Origin: a virus
Lineage: Duplodnaviria > Caudoviricetes
Length of the DNA: 64,000 nt
IMG/VR virus record: IMGVR_UViG_3300013121_000004
Span: 41,903-105,902 of that record
Strand: one strand, 5' to 3'
Shown in pieces: positions 4,853 through 43,700 of this stretch. The translations under genes were made by a program, and so were the position numbers. A model generated the notes under the pieces. That model was not told where the DNA came from. It saw only the letters and a program-made list of their open reading frames with translations, and searched no databases. Within the stretch, counting starts at the first letter, position 1. Each line of letters begins with the position of its first letter.

Positions 4853-4928
4853 TGGCGCGCCCGACAGGACTCGAACCTGTGACACGTAGCTTAGAAGGCT
4901 ACTGCTCTATCCACTGAGCTACGGGCGC
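4853..4928 (-). tRNA. tRNA-Arg (anticodon UCU)
   Basis: GCGCCCGTAGCTCAGTGGATAGAGCAGTAGCCTTCTAAGCTACGTGTCACAGGTTCGAGTCCTGTCGGGCGCGCCA: 76-nt cloverleaf with TTCGA T-loop and encoded CCA. Confidence 0.95.
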
Positions 4929-6645: not shown

Positions 6646-6721
6646 TGGTGGGCCTGCTGGGATTCGAACCCAGAACCTACAAGTTATGAGCTTGTTGCTC
6701 TAACCGTTGAGCTACAGGCCC
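6646..6721 (-). tRNA. tRNA with CAU anticodon, probably tRNA-Ile2 (lysidine-modified, reads AUA)
   Basis: GGGCCTGTAGCTCAACGGTTAGAGCAACAAGCTCATAACTTGTAGGTTCTGGGTTCGAATCCCAGCAGGCCCACCA. C4-G69/C5-G68 pairs favour Ile2; paired 1-72 and no GGG/CCC anticodon stem argue against initiator Met. Confidence 0.9.
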
Positions 6722-12207: not shown

Positions 12208-12657
12208 CTATACCTTCCTGTAGTGTGGCGCTGGTTTGAGGTCGAAAAAAGTCCCGTTTAGCAGATTGTATGCTAGGAACCCAATTCGCCCGTTACCATC
12301 TATCCACGGATGAATGTACATGAGTTCCTTGTAAAACTCGTGCGGTGTAAGTGCTTTTTCTTTGACAGCCCCCATCAAATTTTCGAATGCACGAGGAACT
12401 AACTTATAGTGTAATGAAGAGCCTCCATTCTGGAATGTTACAGGAACTTTTCGTAATGTTCCATGTGGATAATCATTACTATTTCCCATAGCCAGCCGGT
12501 TTGCTTGGCATAGACTATACGCTGTAAGCGGCATAGAATTATTTTCGGAATACACTCGCATATACTTCCATGCTTCAAGCAGATTGATTACTGCTTTGTA
12601 TTCTGTTTCTCCTTGCCGAATTACTTCTTCTGCGATAGGATGCATTACAGAAGACAT
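12208..12657 (-). CDS. Fic/Doc domain protein
   Basis: IHPWIDGNGRIG matches HPFxDGNGR. Confidence 0.85.
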   Translation of the reverse strand: MSSVMHPIAEEVIRQGETEYKAVINLLEAWKYMRVYSENNSMPLTAYSLCQANRLAMGNSNDYPHGTLRKVPVTFQNGGSSLHYKLVPRAFENLMGAVKEKALTPHEFYKELMYIHPWIDGNGRIGFLAYNLLNGTFFDLKPAPHYRKV

Positions 12658-13083: not shown

Positions 13084-13206
13084 TGTAGTATTCCTTACTA
13101 GTCCTCTTGAGTCGTAGAAAGTATCAAACTAGCTCCTGTGTAATCAGATCGCTAGAGTTTACCACTCTCTGTTTGAATGGCGCAATGGCCCGTGTGCGCT
13201 GGATAC

Positions 13207-13662
13207 TCAGCCGTCGTTTCCATCGTCTGTAAACGCAAGCCGCACAATCACCGGGACGAGCTGGCGTCTGTACTCCGCCAAAAGCGGCGCTTCCTTGCGT
13301 TCGTACTCCTCCCAAAGCGGAGCGCGCTGCCGTTCGTACTTCGCCAAAAACGGAGCGCGCTGCCGTTCGTACTCCGCCAAAAGCGGAGCGCGCTGCCGTT
13401 TGTACTCCTCCCAAAGCGGAGCGCGCTGCCGTTCGTACTTCGCCAAAAGCGGAGCGCGCTGCCGTTCGTACTCCTCCCAAAGCGGGGCAGGGAACCGACG
13501 TTCCACCGCCCATTCCACAGCGAGACCAACGCGGAAGGCCCGCTCAATGTTCTCGACCGTGATGGGCATCCCCTCTGGGAATGTTGCCTCGAACAACTCC
13601 CGCTGCTCCGTACACGCACCCCGCAGATGTTTCGCCCGAATCGGGTTCGGTATCCCATTCAT
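13207..13662 (-). CDS. protein with ~7 tandem 11-aa repeats (xxEYERQRAPL)
   Basis: Repeats visible in protein and DNA; GGCGGTGG upstream of ATG. Confidence 0.75.
   Translation of the reverse strand: MNGIPNPIRAKHLRGACTEQRELFEATFPEGMPITVENIERAFRVGLAVEWAVERRFPAPLWEEYERQRAPLLAKYERQRAPLWEEYKRQRAPLLAEYERQRAPFLAKYERQRAPLWEEYERKEAPLLAEYRRQLVPVIVRLAFTDDGNDG
13262..13485. repeat. 33-bp coding tandem repeat, ~7 copies
   Basis: Recurrent aaagcggagcgcgctgccgttcgtac unit. Confidence 0.9.
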
Positions 13663-15759: not shown

Positions 15760-16002
15760 TTATTCCTCCTCTGGGAACGGAAGGCGGATTCCACACCACG
15801 CGCAAAAGCGCACATTGTGGGTCGCCTCGAAATCGAGGCATACCATCCATGTGCGTTCGTTTGTAGCGTAGCCGAGATACACCCACGGCGGCATCGTGAT
15901 GCACACGTGCATACCGGACATGTTCACGTCTTCACCCCACCCTTTGAACGGCTCGCATTCGACGCCGATCATGGTGGTGGACTGTTCGTTATGCTGGAGC
16001 AT
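15760..16002 (-). CDS. small Cys-containing hypothetical protein
   Basis: Ends FCAWCGIRLP (zinc-ribbon half site). Confidence 0.55.
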   Translation of the reverse strand: MLQHNEQSTTMIGVECEPFKGWGEDVNMSGMHVCITMPPWVYLGYATNERTWMVCLDFEATHNVRFCAWCGIRLPFPEEE

Positions 16003-16083
16003 TTAACGCCCTTTCTGTGCGTTTCTGGTGCTATGTACTAGGGTAATACACACACCCTAGTACATAGCGTGGTGCGTTGTGGA

Positions 16084-16917
16084 TTAACCCAGAACGGCGG
16101 CGCGTTCCTGCTGAATCGCCCACTTCCAGCGGTTCATGAGCGCGGACATGTAGACTGGGCGATTCCATTCCCAGTCCTTGAGGATCTCGGGGCGCGCCTT
16201 CGTCTTGCGCCCACCCTGCGGGCCAGTGATGATATCCCGAGGACGAATCCACGAGAAGTCCATGCCGGGATTGTTATCCCGGAGTTCTTGCAGGTACGCC
16301 GCAGCGTCAACGAGCGTACCCTGTTGCCCGTATGTGCTCTCCCGCGCCTGCTGTTCCTGCTGCTCAAGCTGCGCCTTGAGCCTGTCAAGCTCGTCGAGCT
16401 TCTTCAGGATGCCAGCCGAAGGCTGCACTTGCGCCTTCACCTGCTCCATGACAGGCTTCGGAGCCTGCTTCGCAGGAGCCGCGTAGGCGTTTTGCTTCGG
16501 CGCATGCGACCCGTTTACAGGGGCGTGCTTCCCGAGATTCCGCCCTTCATCGCGCGTCATGTTGACGCCTCCGCGCGCTTCGGCCATCAAAGCCGCTTCA
16601 GCAGCCTTCTGTGCTTCGCGTTCGATGGTCGCGCGATTCCGGCTCCCCGGAGGACGCCCGCGCCGTGGCTTCGGCGTAGCCGTGACCCCGAAGTTGTCAT
16701 CGAGGTTCTGGCGAATGGACGTGATGTTCTGAGGAGCCTGCACAGGCGTCCCGAGGACATTCGCAAGGGCGCTTTCAATCGCGCCGTCGATGATGCTCCC
16801 GACGAGCGCATCGATTACCGTGCGCTCAATCATGGGGCCGAGCTTTTCGCTCAGCCGCGCCTGAATCAGTTCTTGAAGCTTGTTCACTATAGTCTCCATG
16901 CGTTTAGAATCCGCCAC
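16084..16917 (-). CDS. putative DNA-binding protein with AT-hook
   Basis: PRRGRPPGSRN AT-hook, coiled coil, basic C-terminal domain. Confidence 0.6.
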   Translation of the reverse strand: MADSKRMETIVNKLQELIQARLSEKLGPMIERTVIDALVGSIIDGAIESALANVLGTPVQAPQNITSIRQNLDDNFGVTATPKPRRGRPPGSRNRATIEREAQKAAEAALMAEARGGVNMTRDEGRNLGKHAPVNGSHAPKQNAYAAPAKQAPKPVMEQVKAQVQPSAGILKKLDELDRLKAQLEQQEQQARESTYGQQGTLVDAAAYLQELRDNNPGMDFSWIRPRDIITGPQGGRKTKARPEILKDWEWNRPVYMSALMNRWKWAIQQERAAVLG

Positions 16918-17009
16918 CCTCTCTTGAGGCCCACCGTATATGCGCCCACATACGATGGAGCACGACTCTTACGCCGTGGCTTAGACTTCCGAGTGCGTGT
17001 GTGTGTGTG

Positions 17010-17531
17010 TTAGGCGAGCTTGCCGTCTGCGAGCTTGGCTGCGAACTGCCCGTTGTTGCCATCCGCGAGCGTGCTACCGCCCACGAGCCGGGACTTCTTC
17101 AGCCCCTTCTCGCTAGCGAGCGCAGTGTACTCGCGCGTGGTAGCCCAGTTGCCGCTTTCCCAGCCGCGCTTATCGCGGTTAGGGAGTTCGCTGAACCCCT
17201 CGCCCGTGGTAGGCGTATGACGCCTCTCCGCCCCTGTCCTGTGGTCGCTGTTCGGATTGCCGAGGTTGTACACCGGGCGCCCCCGAAAGTGCCCGACTAG
17301 GCCGGGCGTTTCATTCACGCCCGACTTGTGCACGTATGGCACGAAGGCAGGGCCACTATCGGCCCCTCGCTGAAGCACGCGCTTGGGTTGCGCAGGCTTC
17401 TCTGCAAAGCCTGCACTCATGGCGTGTGCCGCTGTAGCGGCTCGCAAGGCACGGCGTTCTTCACGCGCCCTATAGGCTGCTTCACGGTCAGCAGTTGCCT
17501 GCTGCATATCGAGCGTGACGACGTAACCCAT
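17010..17531 (-). CDS. hypothetical protein
   Basis: GGAGGG SD; GC3-rich codons. Confidence 0.65.
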   Translation of the reverse strand: MGYVVTLDMQQATADREAAYRAREERRALRAATAAHAMSAGFAEKPAQPKRVLQRGADSGPAFVPYVHKSGVNETPGLVGHFRGRPVYNLGNPNSDHRTGAERRHTPTTGEGFSELPNRDKRGWESGNWATTREYTALASEKGLKKSRLVGGSTLADGNNGQFAAKLADGKLA

Positions 17532-17588
17532 GATGAACCCTCCGAGTGTGTTTGTCGGGGGAGCATAGCTCCCCCTAGGGCGTGTGGA

Positions 17589-17963
17589 CTAGGCGAGCTT
17601 GGCGGGCGTCTTGGCCTTGGCGGGCTGCTTTGCAGCCTGTGCGGGCTTGGCGTAGCGGGCCGCAGCCTCTGCCTTGCGGGCTTCCCGCTTCGCGGGCTCT
17701 TCGACCGACAGGTAGCAGGCCATCCGGCCCTCGCGGTTCACCCATGAGCGTCCGAAGTACACCCGGTATCCCTTCGGGATACCGTGAGCCTTCAGGAAGG
17801 TCGTTGAGAACAGATCCTCCGCAGCGGCTTTGCCGCTGTGTGTCCGCATGTCGTGGGCGATGAACGCCACGACTCGGAACCCTTCGTGGTGGGCTTCCGC
17901 ACGGACACCAGTCTTGCCCTTGGCAAGACCCGTGATTGCGGACTGGATTGCATTGCTGGACAT
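17589..17963 (-). CDS. basic hypothetical protein with Ala/Lys/Pro-rich tail
   Basis: GAGGTG SD; first ORF downstream of the structured RNA. Confidence 0.7.
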   Translation of the reverse strand: MSSNAIQSAITGLAKGKTGVRAEAHHEGFRVVAFIAHDMRTHSGKAAAEDLFSTTFLKAHGIPKGYRVYFGRSWVNREGRMACYLSVEEPAKREARKAEAAARYAKPAQAAKQPAKAKTPAKLA

Positions 17964-17969
17964 GGTACA

Positions 17970-18650
17970 CCTCTAGACAAAGCTCGCGCCTTTTAGGCGC
18001 GGCATAGCGAAAATGTACCTTATTTTGAGCACGCTTCCGCTAGGCCGCGTGTAAAACACGCTTTGCCTTCCCCCGTCCCCCATAAGCGCATATCTTCACT
18101 TGGCGGGCGCAGCTCTCCTACGGACTCATAACCCGGAGGCACGCGGGCCTCAGAGCTGCATAGGGGTTATTACGAACGTTGGCACCACCCAACGCGCTTA
18201 TTGTTAATGTACTCTAGGCACAGCTACCGCCGCGACATAACGTTTCGGCCACGGGTGGCTTGCGCTATGTGGTGAGCATAGCTCGCGCCAACCCTTGACG
18301 TCCCGGCTTCGCCTTACAGGGTCAGCCTTCCGTTCAACGGTAACCTACCTATCGAAGAGTGTTTTGGACATAGCTCACGCCTGCCTGCTAGCTGCCATGC
18401 TAAGGCTCGTTATTGCTATCCCGCGTCCCATAGCTCGCGCTTAAGGTGTCTTGGCTGACCCCTACCGCGTTTGCCCAAAGCTACCGCTCACGTCCGGGAC
18501 AAGTCAACCGAACGTCTAGCTAATGGAATCACTCTTTAAGGTGCGACCGAATCGGTTGAGATTGGATTCGGCAAAGGCCGCAATCGGCCTCGACCCCCAG
18601 AGAATGAACTGTTTCGGCGGTTTTGGCAGGATGTCCTCGGGGGTCTAACC
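17970..18650 (-). ncRNA. candidate large structured non-coding RNA or leader (unassigned family)
   Basis: No credible ORF; at least 10 nested long-range helices whose imperfect positions are G-U on the minus strand; one pseudoknot; six copies of a 13-nt motif. Confidence 0.7.
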
Positions 18651-18689
18651 CACCCGCCGTTTGCATTTCCGCTAGGTTTGCGCAATTAA

Positions 18690-18885
18690 TACATACACTC
18701 GTATATGCTATGTGTGTATGCGTATGTATCCTCAATAACGGTATCATCGTATATGGTATGGTAGGTATATAGTATATCTGTGGTGTATGTATGCTATGTG
18801 TATAGTCTACCTGTGATGTATGTATGGTAATGCGGTAAGGTATACGTGGTAGCATGATAGTGCTCTACTGTCATGCTCTATGAAA
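18690..18885. repeat. G/T-skewed low-complexity tract (GTAT/TATG-rich)
   Basis: Many GTATG/GTATA units, C-poor on the plus strand. Confidence 0.7.
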
Positions 18886-18981
18886 ATGTACTCCGGTACA
18901 GGCTTTGAATGGTAGTCAAACATTTGAGAGATTTTGTGAATTTGTTAGTAGAGGGGTATCTTACTACGTTTGGGCTCAGGT

Positions 18982-19011
18982 AATAAAAACCCCACTAGAG
19001 TATAGTGGGGT
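18982..19011 (-). terminator. intrinsic terminator
   Basis: ACCCCACTA-TACTC-TAGTGGGGT then TTTTATT on the minus strand, downstream of the PRTase gene. Confidence 0.8.
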
Positions 19012-19068
19012 AGATTTTTTGATAAATAGGCGATGCGGGCCGTTGTGGTGCGTTTCAGGCGGTATTAT

Positions 19069-19455
19069 TTATGTGTTGCTGGAGAATAAACTGGTGATCC
19101 AGTGTGGGCGGTGGTGTAGTGGGTCTATGTTGCGATCGAAGATTACCAGTCCACTGATAGATGGGAATTGGTTGGTATACTCTTCGTACGCTCGGCGCAT
19201 AGACCCTCCAGTGGTATACACGTCATCGCATATCAGGAGATTGAATCTAGCGTATGAAGTGTATTGCTCCATAGCTTTCGCTAAGCGAAGTCCTCCTCTG
19301 GGGATGCCTACTACGTCGGAGAAGGGTGGGAGTCTTTGGGAGGCGATATACGCCAGTGTTTCGATGTCTCCGTCTGTCAGCGCGTCACAGTCTATTTTCC
19401 ATTCGGACTTTAATCCGCTATTGAGTGTATAGTCACCTATTTGGAATAATGTCAT
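19069..19455 (-). CDS. pyrE: orotate phosphoribosyltransferase-like type I PRTase (short)
   Basis: LNSGLKSEWKID, VVGIPRGG, PRPP-binding LICDDVYTTGGS. Confidence 0.75.
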   Translation of the reverse strand: MTLFQIGDYTLNSGLKSEWKIDCDALTDGDIETLAYIASQRLPPFSDVVGIPRGGLRLAKAMEQYTSYARFNLLICDDVYTTGGSMRRAYEEYTNQFPSISGLVIFDRNIDPLHHRPHWITSLFSSNT

Positions 19456-40700: not shown

Positions 40701-43700
40701 CAAGACCAGATAGAATCCATCAGAGACGCTACTGACGCTTGGACGGAACAAAAGGAAGCTATCATAGATGACTACCAGTCACAGATAGTTGTAATCGACG
40801 ATATAATTGATGGTATCCGTAAGCAAGAAGCTGCTGCATCAAAGGCGGCTAATGCTCAGAAAGAGCTTCTACAAGATCAAATAGATGCTATCCAAGAAGT
40901 AGGCGAAGAGCAGACACGGGTCGCGCAGGATAAAGAATATTGGGATCAGAGAGCGTACCTCACTGGTCAGTCTTTGCTCGCTCAGCTAGAGGCACAACAA
41001 AGAGCACTAGATAATCGAGCACAGCGGCAGCGGCAGCAGGGTGAATCCGATACAGATTACCAGCTACGTATGCAGCAGCTTGCTCTTGCTAACGACATCG
41101 AAGAGGAACAGAGAAGACTATCCCTGTCTGCTCTTGACGAGAACAGATTGCTGGAGGAAGCTAACCGCGTTAGAGAAAATACCATCAAGTTGCTTCAGGA
41201 TCAGATTCAAGCTATCGAAGATGCGTTTGAAGCACAAAAGGAAGCTAACGACACACTAATTGAAGGATACGACGCGCAGAAGGGGTCATATTCCAGCCTT
41301 ATCGACGGAATCAAGGATGAAATCGATGCTCGCAAGAAAGCAGACGACGCTACTATTAAAGGGATCGAGAACAACGTCAAGGCAATTGATAAGGAAATCG
41401 AAAGGTACCAGAACCTAGCTGACGAGGCACGCAAGGCGCAAGACGCTGTTGATGAGTACTACGATAAGCAAATTGAAGATCTAGATACACAAATCGATTC
41501 TATCTCTGACGCTATCGACAGCATCAAAAATAAGTACGACGAACTCAAAGAAGCAAATGATCTGAGAATCGAAGACCTCCAAGAGCTGGCCGAGAGTACT
41601 CGCGATACTTATGAAGGCATCATTGACCCAATTGACGAAGAAATTAAGAAGATCAAAGAATCTGTAGACGAAGCCAAGAAAGCAGCAGCAGAAAAGATCG
41701 AGCTATTGGACGATCAAGCCGAGGCTATCCGTGACTACTATACCCCTCTGCTTCGTGCACAGCAAGATGAGATCGATAAATGGGAAGAAGCCATCAAAGT
41801 GATGGATCGTTATAATAAGGAACGGAAGCGAGCACTAGATGAAGCAATAGGTCTACAGGAAGCCAATGCAGCTAAGCCTGTTTCAGGAGCATCTAGCTCT
41901 TACACTATCGGTGGAGTAGACGTAGGGAGTATCGGTACTAAGATCGGTAAAATCGTGTACGAAGCAGCTATTGCTCCGTTTACAAAGGAAATAACTAATC
42001 CCAAAAAGAGAGCAGGGTCAGCTGGTATAGATGACCCTGATACTGTAACTGTGTTTGCATTTGACTCAGAGGCTATTAAGGAAGCGCTACACAATCTAGT
42101 AGACGATATCGTACAGCCTACAGTGGAGTATTTCTGGAATGAGTGGTGGAGACTGTCTGGGGAATATGCTCCTAAAGGCGCAAAGGGTCTTATAGGTATA
42201 CTGGTAGCGGAACTCGTAGATCAGATGATTAATCATCTAAAAGATCCTAATACATGGAAAGACATGACCAGCGGTAAGTTCATGCCCGCAGGGGTCTTCT
42301 CCAATATGGGAGAGAAAATTGGAGGCTGGATCATTGAAGGACTTATCGATGAAATAGGGAAGAACATAGGTATAAGTAGCAATACGCGAAAGAAGTGGAT
42401 AGAGTTCTTTGAAGAAGCTATTTCCGCTATGAAAGAACTCTTCACTCCAATGAACTGGGCTATCTATTTCTATAGATACATAGTTAAGCCACTAATTGAC
42501 TTGATAACGGAATGGGACAAAATGATTCCTTACTGGGAGGGGTTTTGGGAAGAAGCTCTTATTGCTGCTGGCAATGTCTTCAAAGACATTGCAATGTTCC
42601 TGTATGACCATCTTATTAAGCCAATCATAGATTACATCAAAGATCCTTCGTTACTTAAGGACGATGCGGAAAAGCTATGGGGCAGTATCTTAAAGGCTGG
42701 TGAGTTTGTATTCAGCACGCTTACTAAGTGGTTAAGCGATACATTCGTTAAGCCTATAGTATCTTTCATAGACGGCACTATCAAGGTCGGTGGAGAGCTG
42801 TGGGATAAGTTTAGCGATATGTGGGGCGCATTCTACAGATCAGGTGAAAAAGCATTCAGCACAATCGGTACTTGGCTAAGCGATACTATCGGAAAGCCTA
42901 TTACAGAATTCTTTAGTGGGTTAGGCAGTAGCATTGGAACTGCCTTTGGTGGGGTTTGGTCTGTTATTCTAAAGCCATTCGAGACAGCGTATAAAGGTAT
43001 AGACTGGATGTTCGAAAAGCTAAGTGCAGCAATCTCTAAGATTGCTGGTGTTGCTAGGCTCGACGTTCCAGATTTCAGCCTTCCTGATTGGCAGAATCCA
43101 TCTGCGGGTATTGGAGACGCGTATGCAGGCCAGCCTCCTCCGGGGTCTAGCGCGTACCCTGAGTTTGCTGAAGGCGGTCGAATTGATCGACCGACTCGTG
43201 CGCTAATTGGTGAAGCCGGGTATCCTGAGTACGTTATTTCTACTGATCCGAGTAAGAAATCTCGCACTATGGGACTCCTCCAAAACTTCTTCAAAGAATT
43301 AAATGGTGGACGTCAAACGGATGGCGGATTCGGGTCTAGTAGAGGCGGGCCGTTTGACTTTATCGATAGTGCATTCGGCAAGGCCGGGGAGTTCTTCTCT
43401 GGCGCGTTCGCTGCTGGGAAGAAAGGGCTCGATGTAATTACAGAAGCACCATCTCAGTTAATGTCGCTTGCCAAGGATCAGGCAGCCAAGATTCTAAAAG
43501 CTGCTATTGAAGAAGCGATCAGTGCAACACCCGGACAGCTACCGCTATTTACCGGCTTAATGAATTGGGTTAAGGATGCCATCATTAAATGGTTCACCGG
43601 GTCTGGGTATGATGCTGGAACGTTCTTCGACGCAGAAGATATATTCGGTAACGGCGCAGTTATTCCTACACAATCATATGGAGATACTACGTATGCTCAA

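Follow-up and report, generated by a model that had tools for sequence, protein, structure and literature searches.

The closest described counterparts of the locus analysed here are the nutL/boxB-N system of phage lambda, the CsrB/RsmZ RNAs, the ROOL/GOLLD RNAs, and iteron-type replication origins with their single-strand initiation (ssi) hairpins. In lambda, a leader RNA between an early promoter and the first operon gene carries one boxB hairpin per nut site, a short hairpin with a GNRA-type loop; the first product, N, has a basic helical segment, and there is a terminator-like hairpin to be passed. CsrB and RsmZ are non-coding RNAs (ncRNAs) of a few hundred nucleotides, encoded as separate genes, in which many copies of one short motif, GGA, sit in small hairpins at irregular spacing with drifting spacers between them, while ROOL and GOLLD are non-coding, 0.5–0.8 kb long, occur in phage genomes and have many GNRA loops. 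At iteron origins co-oriented repeats of 17–22 bp lie beside an AT-rich tract, and 8-mers of the d(GCGAAAGC) type (GC-GNNA-GC), which are unusually stable DNA mini-hairpins, are present at some phage origins. To our knowledge, long untranslated leaders with many copies of one small hairpin have not been described for phage operons. In this study, we analysed a 64,000-nt stretch of DNA from a wastewater phage (Duplodnaviria; Caudoviricetes), hereafter the window, which is the right-hand 64 kb (positions 41,903–105,902) of the 105.9-kb IMG/VR contig IMGVR_UViG_3300013121_000004. On its minus strand, from about 18690 to 17964, lies a non-coding stretch of about 0.7 kb that no described RNA family matches. 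We tentatively read it as the untranslated leader of a GC-rich four-gene cassette, carrying an array of hairpins that would bind a trans-acting factor controlling the cassette; the leader is possibly also released as an RNA. Unless stated otherwise, features described below lie on the minus strand.

An earlier note on this DNA had proposed that 17970–18650 contains no credible open reading frame (ORF) and encodes a large, multi-domain structured RNA heading the GC-rich leftward transcript. The first point is borne out by our analysis: the longest internal ORFs measure 40–49 aa, a low-complexity 108-aa ORF at the edge (18529–18855) is called in none of the 28 related contigs, and no ORF is common to the leader of the window and that of its distant relative, the contig L061. 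As the note had also said, the stretch stops at the Shine–Dalgarno (SD) sequence and start codon of the ORF at 17589–17963, which we read at 17961–17975 (AGAGG and ATG). Searching the whole window with cmscan against Rfam at gathering thresholds returned two tRNAs only, a permissive search of 17400–19100 (E≤10) gave five chance-level matches only, and ARAGORN reported no tRNA or tmRNA in the leader stretch. The non-coding nature of the stretch, the lack of an Rfam family and its position between a terminator and the first gene, which is kept in the distant relative, have therefore stood, but the large multi-domain fold, to which we return below, has not.

The relatives used for comparison were found through the first cassette protein, of 124 aa, which belongs to a single 90% cluster among 5.8 billion proteins and has as sole relatives P0001 (91%) and P0006 (47%). 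The close cluster comprises 28 contigs (from ENA, Logan and JGI; wastewater, sludge and soil), with leaders that are 95% identical to that of the window and 99.6–100% identical among themselves and which thus make two lineages together with the window. The one further homologue obtained by an exhaustive HMMER search, P0006 at 47% identity, is encoded on the identical Logan contigs L061 and L062. In L061 (1885–5595) the same four genes follow each other in the same order with 42–49% identity (130, 173, 272 and 82 aa), and the GC content rises from 48% to 60% precisely at a stretch of 840 nt without genes, in which a terminator at 1821–1848 is followed by about 35 nt, a conserved 5′ block, about 500 nt of unalignable sequence and a 3′ module. 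The conserved 5′ block, which is probably the 5′ end of the RNA, is found in the window at 18630–18687 (blastn, 76% identity over 58 nt to L061 1884–1941) and holds a degenerate copy, GCGGAAAUGCAA, of the motif described below. The 3′ module aligns with window 18046–17964, with which it has in common the long hairpin and, ahead of the start codon, the GC-rich one; the L061 SD sequence lies inside a 7-bp hairpin (2617–2633). Only these two end modules are alignable between the leaders; an alignment of the 5′ half made with MAFFT and RNAalifold proved unreliable past its first 70 columns, and the compensatory pairs that it suggested were not used. The genes upstream of the L061 leader have no counterpart in this phage genome, and as leader layout and genes are shared in spite of this, leader and genes travel together as one cassette. 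The leader and its four orphan genes look like a mobile, moron-like module.

The strongest non-random feature of the leader is a repeated motif that was absent from the list of complementarities in the earlier note. The 12-mer GCGNNAGCTNTG occurs in six minus-strand copies between 17978 and 18487 (seven in the window as a whole, against 0.66 expected), and its core 8-mer, GCGNDAGC, in eight minus-strand copies at 17982–18487 and in nine sense-strand copies in L061 at 2026–2616. Compared with a background of about 0.27 per kb per strand, the array is enriched about 60-fold, and the motif forms no other cluster anywhere in the genome. In the unalignable centre the only conserved content is a set of co-oriented copies of GCGNRAGC(U)DUG, eight in the window and nine in L061. 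Of the 17 copies, 14 have a purine as the fifth motif base (loop position 3), and in 14 the core is followed by AUG, GUG or UUG, directly or past one U. Copies b (18476–18487; loop GGUA, changed to GAUA in the close lineage), c (18429–18440; GCGA) and d (18369–18380; GUGA) are followed by copy e, with loop GCGA, which forms the 5′ strand of an invariant hairpin (18258–18288) whose 3′ strand contains an extra 8-mer, GCGCAAGC, at 18265–18258. Copy f (18219–18230; GGUA) makes a 6-bp hairpin with its flanks, and copies g (18040–18029) and h (17989–17978) belong to the 3′ module, where g lies in the 5′ arm of the long hairpin and h overlaps the GC-rich hairpin. The spacing is irregular, with 47, 60, 92, 58, 190 and 51 nt in the window and 43–150 nt in L061.

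The motif consensus differs between the lineages, being GCGCGAGCUAUG in the window and GCGGAAGCAUG in L061, and this shift in concert is consistent with co-evolution with a specific partner. The kept copy number and orientation, the concerted change of the consensus and the freedom of the spacers point to a specific trans-acting partner and not to a fixed global fold. Other origins for the repeats were considered and rejected. Transposon-end binding sites would be expected to have an inverted cluster at the other end of the GC-rich island, and none is present there; tRNA-like repeats are ruled out by the spacing and by the negative ARAGORN and Rfam searches; clustering of a restriction site (AGCT) is not exceptional; and small ORFs starting at the DUG triplets would have 4–20 codons in the window and are not kept in L061.

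It might also be argued that the stretch has no dedicated function and is a long spacer or 5′ untranslated region of a horizontally acquired cassette, with repeats that arose by local duplication or gene conversion and with ordinary mRNA-stabilising or terminator hairpins. This would fit with a core that is thermodynamically unremarkable (see below) and with the observation that in further RNA and DNA contigs the leader has diverged by 4–12%, similar to the neighbouring genes. The near-identity of the two close lineages at 18029–18388 may reflect a recombination tract, since other blocks, among them coding sequence, match equally well; for the same reason, and given the 4–12% leader differences of more distant contigs, an argument for purifying selection that we had drawn from this segment was dropped. 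However, leader length (about 700–750 nt), copy number (8 versus 9), orientation and both end modules have been kept across proteins with only 42–49% identity, and the motif enrichment as well as the purine and DUG constraints hold in both lineages. We therefore regard the absence of a dedicated function as decidedly improbable.

In its GC-GNRA-GC form, the motif core is a two-pair stem closing a GNRA tetraloop, to which the flanks add between 0 and 4 pairs, many of them G-U. When G-U pairs are allowed on the sense strand, this flanking extension averages 1.53 pairs in the array compared with 0.65 pairs at 49 background copies in the genome (p=0.004); when only Watson–Crick pairs are counted the excess has p=0.13, and under the antisense rule, in which these pairs become A-C, p=0.11. 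This G-U-dependent flank pairing and the alternation of G-U and G-C pairs in the long 3′ hairpin are the best evidence here for a minus-strand RNA. The earlier note had come to the same polarity by a different route, namely that imperfect helix positions would be G-U on the minus strand and A-C on the plus strand, but that argument is circular because the helices were picked with G-U allowed on the minus strand. The polarity itself is thus favoured by one strand-specific test, the flank pairing of the motif, although it gains nothing from folding energy, which is equal on both strands.

Local hairpins next to the motif copies and at the two ends of the leader were compared between lineages. 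Among six local hairpins with 52 pairs, four pairs have changed on both sides, a number reached by 2 of 500 shuffles; the corresponding covariation score was reached by 1 of 500 shuffles, and slid controls gave 0–1 two-sided changes. Near the 5′ end, the stems of the hairpins at 18645–18592 (GACCCCC/GGGGGUC) and 18589–18576 (GGCCG/CGGCC) are invariant, and in a third hairpin (CCGAAUC/GAUUCGG, 18571–18547) all five differences from the close lineage are confined to the loop. Hairpin H-a (18490–18515, 8 bp) stands directly 5′ of motif copy b; its pair 18513/18492 is polymorphic, G-C or A-U, inside the close cluster, and a U-G pair has become U-A at 18494. Hairpin H-b (18383–18406, 8 bp with a 2-nt bulge) begins 2 nt 5′ of copy d, and its differences at 18402, 18399, 18392 and 18389 form two compensatory pairs, by which UAGC/GCUA is converted to CAGU/ACUG; a soil-metagenome contig shows the same four changes.

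The long 3′ hairpin, P3′a (18001–18046, 18 bp with two mismatches), has kept its stem in all three lineages with alternation of G-U, G-C and A-U pairs, and its upper part is perfect in the close relatives. Its tip is variable: an apical part of 10 nt in the window compares with one of 24 nt in L061 and one of 54 nt in the close lineage, which has here a 44-nt insertion (L002 5905–5948, between window 18022 and 18021) with an extra GCUAUG and a CCCCC-UUCG-GGGGG hairpin. P3′a is followed by the GC-rich, terminator-like hairpin P3′b (17985–18001), in which a 7-bp stem is succeeded by UUUGUCU and which ends about 10 nt before the SD sequence. Compared with the close lineage, P3′b shows one compensatory pair and one change from G-C to G-U, and it is conserved in L061.

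A different picture was obtained for the long-range helices on which the multi-domain fold had been based. All the listed complementarities are present at their coordinates, for example 18461–18453 with 18327–18319 (9 of 9 pairs) and 18201–18192 with 18091–18082 (10 of 10 pairs, one of them G-U), but as a whole they are not clearly above chance when compared with shuffled sequences, and they show no strand preference. For the 681-nt interval, the minimum free energy set against 80 dinucleotide shuffles had a z-score of −2.3 on the minus and −2.2 on the plus strand, and of −2.0 and −2.6, respectively, in a second computation; as these values are near-equal, folding energy gives no preference for either strand. 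The signal is confined to the ends: the 460-nt core (18060–18520) has z −0.2, 150-nt windows across 18025–18700 range between −1.7 and +0.5, and only the 3′ end stands out (17950–18099, z −3.3). The same holds for L061, with z +0.2 for the leader core and −2.8 to −3.9 for the 3′ module. In the alignment of close relatives, none of the note's 50 long-range pairs has changed on both sides and three are broken in four of five sequences; the power of this comparison is low, as two close lineages and one unalignable distant lineage are available. Moreover, the helices that the note had assigned to two domains compete with covariation-backed local hairpins, namely H-a (18515–18490), which is incompatible with the Domain 1 helix, and the long 3′ hairpin (18046–18001). 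A helix-rich appearance to the eye need not go with a folding energy better than that of shuffled sequence; the informative signal in this case came from a distant homologue and a short repeat.

These results bear on the possibility that the stretch encodes a free RNA of about 0.7 kb, large and structured or serving as a scaffold, which would end at the 3′ terminator-like hairpin and whose GNRA loops would make tertiary or intermolecular contacts or act as a sponge for a host factor. Its size class, the phage setting and the lack of an Rfam match would suit such an RNA, as would the eight to nine GNRA-type loops and the perfect 9–10-bp long-range complements. The flanks of motif copy c, CCUUAAG...UAUGG, resemble an 11-nt tetraloop receptor, and GGCGG/CCGCC could form a pseudoknot crossing GACCCCC/GGGGGUC, for which a plausible covarying counterpart was seen in L061, by eye only. 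However, core z-scores are about zero in both lineages, the central 500 nt have neither alignable similarity nor a demonstrable common fold, and the long-range helices lack covariation and break at three pairs. Contigs from RNA libraries give no sign of abundance over the neighbouring genes (weak evidence), and the distribution is confined to three lineages. The likeness to ROOL and GOLLD accordingly ends with size, setting, non-coding nature and loops: there is no match to their Rfam models, no covariation-backed multi-domain fold, a core that equals shuffles in two lineages, and a very narrow distribution. Such a scaffold or sponge RNA is in our judgement quite unlikely, and it keeps what probability it has because the 3′ hairpin could terminate transcription. 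No less unlikely is that the leader is released at this hairpin as a phage RNA of about 0.7 kb whose eight or nine GNRA hairpins act jointly, as a self-assembling scaffold or as a multivalent decoy titrating away a host protein of RNA binding or defence; if true, it would be an undescribed class of phage ncRNA defined by a hairpin array and not by a fixed global fold. Where the earlier note had left the choice between a free phage ncRNA in the size class of ROOL/GOLLD and a giant cis leader, it is the giant cis leader that fits best, and the ROOL/GOLLD-like fold that has found no support.

The array could also act at the DNA level, its co-oriented copies serving as protein-binding direct repeats or as single-stranded DNA mini-hairpins in a replication origin, a single-strand initiation signal, a packaging or partition site, or an operator array. 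As at iteron origins, a dense array of co-oriented short repeats stands beside an AT-rich tract, here at the minimum of the cumulative GC skew of the window, and the 8-mer has the GC-GNNA-GC form of the d(GCGAAAGC)-type hairpins. A concerted change of consensus is how co-evolving protein-binding sites behave, the core folds no better than shuffles, and the cassette proteins look DNA-binding, the 277-aa one containing an AT-hook-like RRGRPPG and the 124-aa one having a basic Lys/Ala tail. However, at 8–12 nt the repeats are too short, and their spacing of 43–190 nt is irregular and without helical phasing, which is unlike 17–22-bp iterons. The AT-rich tract is not conserved, L061 having only about 35 nt in its place, and no initiator, ParB or terminase family was recognised among the genes adjoining the leader, which belong to no recognisable family and for which structure models were uninformative. 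Furthermore, flank complementarity is significant only with sense-strand G-U pairs, the long 3′ hairpin of the window contains three G-U pairs that would be A-C on the other strand, and the UUCG-capped insertion at its tip is an RNA-type feature. A DNA-level role is thus unlikely, though we accord it some weight.

Our tentative reading of the stretch as a regulatory leader would proceed as follows. Transcription would start just downstream of the terminator at 18989–19011 and yield an RNA with three parts: the conserved 5′ block, which contains a few stable hairpins; a centre of about 500 nt that varies in sequence and in which each of eight motif copies would be able to form a short GNRA-capped hairpin; and the conserved long hairpin, followed by the GC-rich terminator-like hairpin that overlaps the final motif copy and directly adjoins the ribosome-binding site. 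The array might then serve as a multivalent platform for a factor acting in trans, which would most likely be a basic RNA-binding protein; the first product of the cassette is a candidate on grounds of position alone. Depending on whether the array is occupied, the 3′ module would or would not admit polymerase and ribosome to the cassette, in a mode akin to lambda N/boxB read-through or to translational auto-repression, and transcripts that stop at the 3′ hairpin could build up as a free RNA of about 0.7 kb.

The likeness of such a leader to nutL extends to its presumed location between promoter and first operon gene, to putative short hairpins with GNRA-type loops, to a first product with a predicted basic helical segment and to a terminator-like hairpin that has to be passed. 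It differs in that 8–9 such hairpins would be distributed over 500 nt, compared with the single boxB of a lambda nut site, and in that their loops are tetraloops on 2–6-bp stems with a conserved 3′ (U)DUG, where boxB has pentaloops. The 124-aa protein has no similarity to N, and no N-family protein was recognised among the cassette products; no boxA was identified, although a systematic search for it was not made and a loose CACUCUUC segment can be seen by eye after copy d. With CsrB and RsmZ the stretch shares the many copies of one short motif in small hairpins, the irregular spacing, the size of a few-hundred-nucleotide ncRNA and the drifting spacers; its motif, however, is GCGNRAGC(U)DUG and not GGA, it is placed as the leader of a phage operon and not as a separate gene, and no Rfam model of the Csr/Rsm type matches.

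Several observations weigh against the leader reading. No cassette protein matches an RNA-binding or antiterminator family, the structural model of the first protein has no structural match, and no promoter consensus was seen in the window or in L061 (no sigma-70 consensus on the minus strand). Motif copies g and h lie inside longer covariation-backed helices and not in mini-hairpins, and 5 of the 17 copies have no flank pairing and are left with the 2-bp stem. The G(−1)/U(+1) flank belongs to the window's own repeat consensus, and because of this the motif copies are not independent. As regards covariation, the six hairpins were chosen with the alignment already seen, and RNAalifold also reports some compensatory pairs in coding control windows, which are much more divergent. 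The U-tract of the 3′ hairpin is weak. Only three lineages are at hand, two of which share 95% identity. Short contigs at a depth of 2–6, from two wastewater metatranscriptome runs, cover parts of the leader and the flanking genes, but such RNA-library contigs show neither strand, ends nor level and may stem from DNA carry-over.

The upstream boundary of the leader is formed by a bidirectional intrinsic terminator at 18989–19011, with a 9-bp stem and a T-run on both strands, which closes the unit of an upstream PRT-like gene and has its counterpart in the L061 terminator about 35 nt ahead of the conserved 5′ block. Between terminator and leader lies a tract of about 200 nt (18690–18900) with GTAT/ATAC repeats in 11- and 33-nt units and a drop in GC content, in which we presume the promoter to be located. 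This tract has a 17-nt indel between the close lineages and is therefore, being indel-variable and absent from L061, outside the conserved element. A T7-like RNA polymerase was not found, which is a weak negative since the control genomes were also silent.

The contig has a GC content of 44%, with tail, capsid, portal and lysis genes on its plus strand and with a long leftward block of replication and nucleotide-metabolism genes; its giant ORFs encode tail proteins. Two phage tRNA genes, of the Arg(TCT) and Met/Ile2 (CAT) types, are found on the minus strand at 4853–4928 and 6646–6721. Minus-strand orphan genes form the GC-rich island (13.1–18.7 kb, 53–64% GC), of which the ORF-free stretch of about 0.7 kb, between the terminator and the ribosome-binding site of the 124-aa gene, is the upstream edge. 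At the far end of the island (13124–13662) there are GC-rich tandem repeats of about 42 nt that are open in several frames, one of which encodes repeated YERQRAPL units belonging to no family, and just past its left edge lies a gene for a 149-aa Fic/DOC-family protein (12208–12657; Pfam E 6e-9).

The cassette consists of genes for proteins of 124, 173, 277 and 80 aa and spans, with the leader, window positions 15760–18690. The first gene (17589–17963), which always adjoins the leader, encodes a protein with a basic helical C-terminal tail that belongs to no known family; its model is of medium confidence (pLDDT 70), shows a basic helix at residues 90–103 and has no structural match in the PDB. 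For the 277-aa protein (16084–16917) the model is unusable (pLDDT 42); its AT-hook-like RRGRPPG is invariant in all lineages, and the remainder is predicted to consist of long helices and disorder. None of the cassette proteins matched a Pfam, PHROG or NCBIfam antiterminator, and nothing was matched in searches of the ESM Atlas, PADLOC and NCBIfam. Local folding in the region is strongest over the opening 240 nt of the coding sequence for the 124-aa protein (17725–18024; minus strand, z −4.4 to −5.2; plus strand, z −2.6 to −4.5), with an inverted repeat at 17906–17918/17922–17934. Between the first two genes stands a hairpin (17557–17575, 8 bp, loop UAU) whose position is kept in L061 (3044–3064, 7 bp, 7-nt loop), although the stem sequence is wholly different. 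Positions 17000–17700, which take in the 173-aa gene and the 3′ part of the one for 124 aa, are hypervariable, with 85 of 102 variable columns among contigs that are otherwise 99.6–100% identical, and many assemblies stop at 16740–17563; this may reflect diversifying selection or strain mixtures.

The element has a narrow distribution, with three lineages from wastewater and soil metagenomes and none further in IMG/VR, JGI, GTDB or the protein collections. The leader and the neighbouring 8 kb had no DNA match among 50,697 phage records, and no relatives were found in IMG/VR by the 124-aa or 173-aa proteins or by alignments of the 277-aa and 124-aa proteins. Of 17 IMG/VR loci examined that have the PRT-like neighbour gene, none has the leader (nhmmer), the motif or other cassette genes. 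In IMG/VR and the JGI metagenomes, patterns of two or three motifs matched only unrelated repeats, for example those of CRISPR-like arrays, satellites and pentapeptide-repeat genes, and the 5′ block used as a pattern gave no matches in IMG/VR or GTDB genomes.

If the array does gate a cassette that moves horizontally and encodes orphan proteins, which probably bind nucleic acids, as our tentative reading of the stretch as an untranslated leader suggests, this would represent a new regulatory layout, one related in principle to N/boxB and to the Csr-type RNAs.

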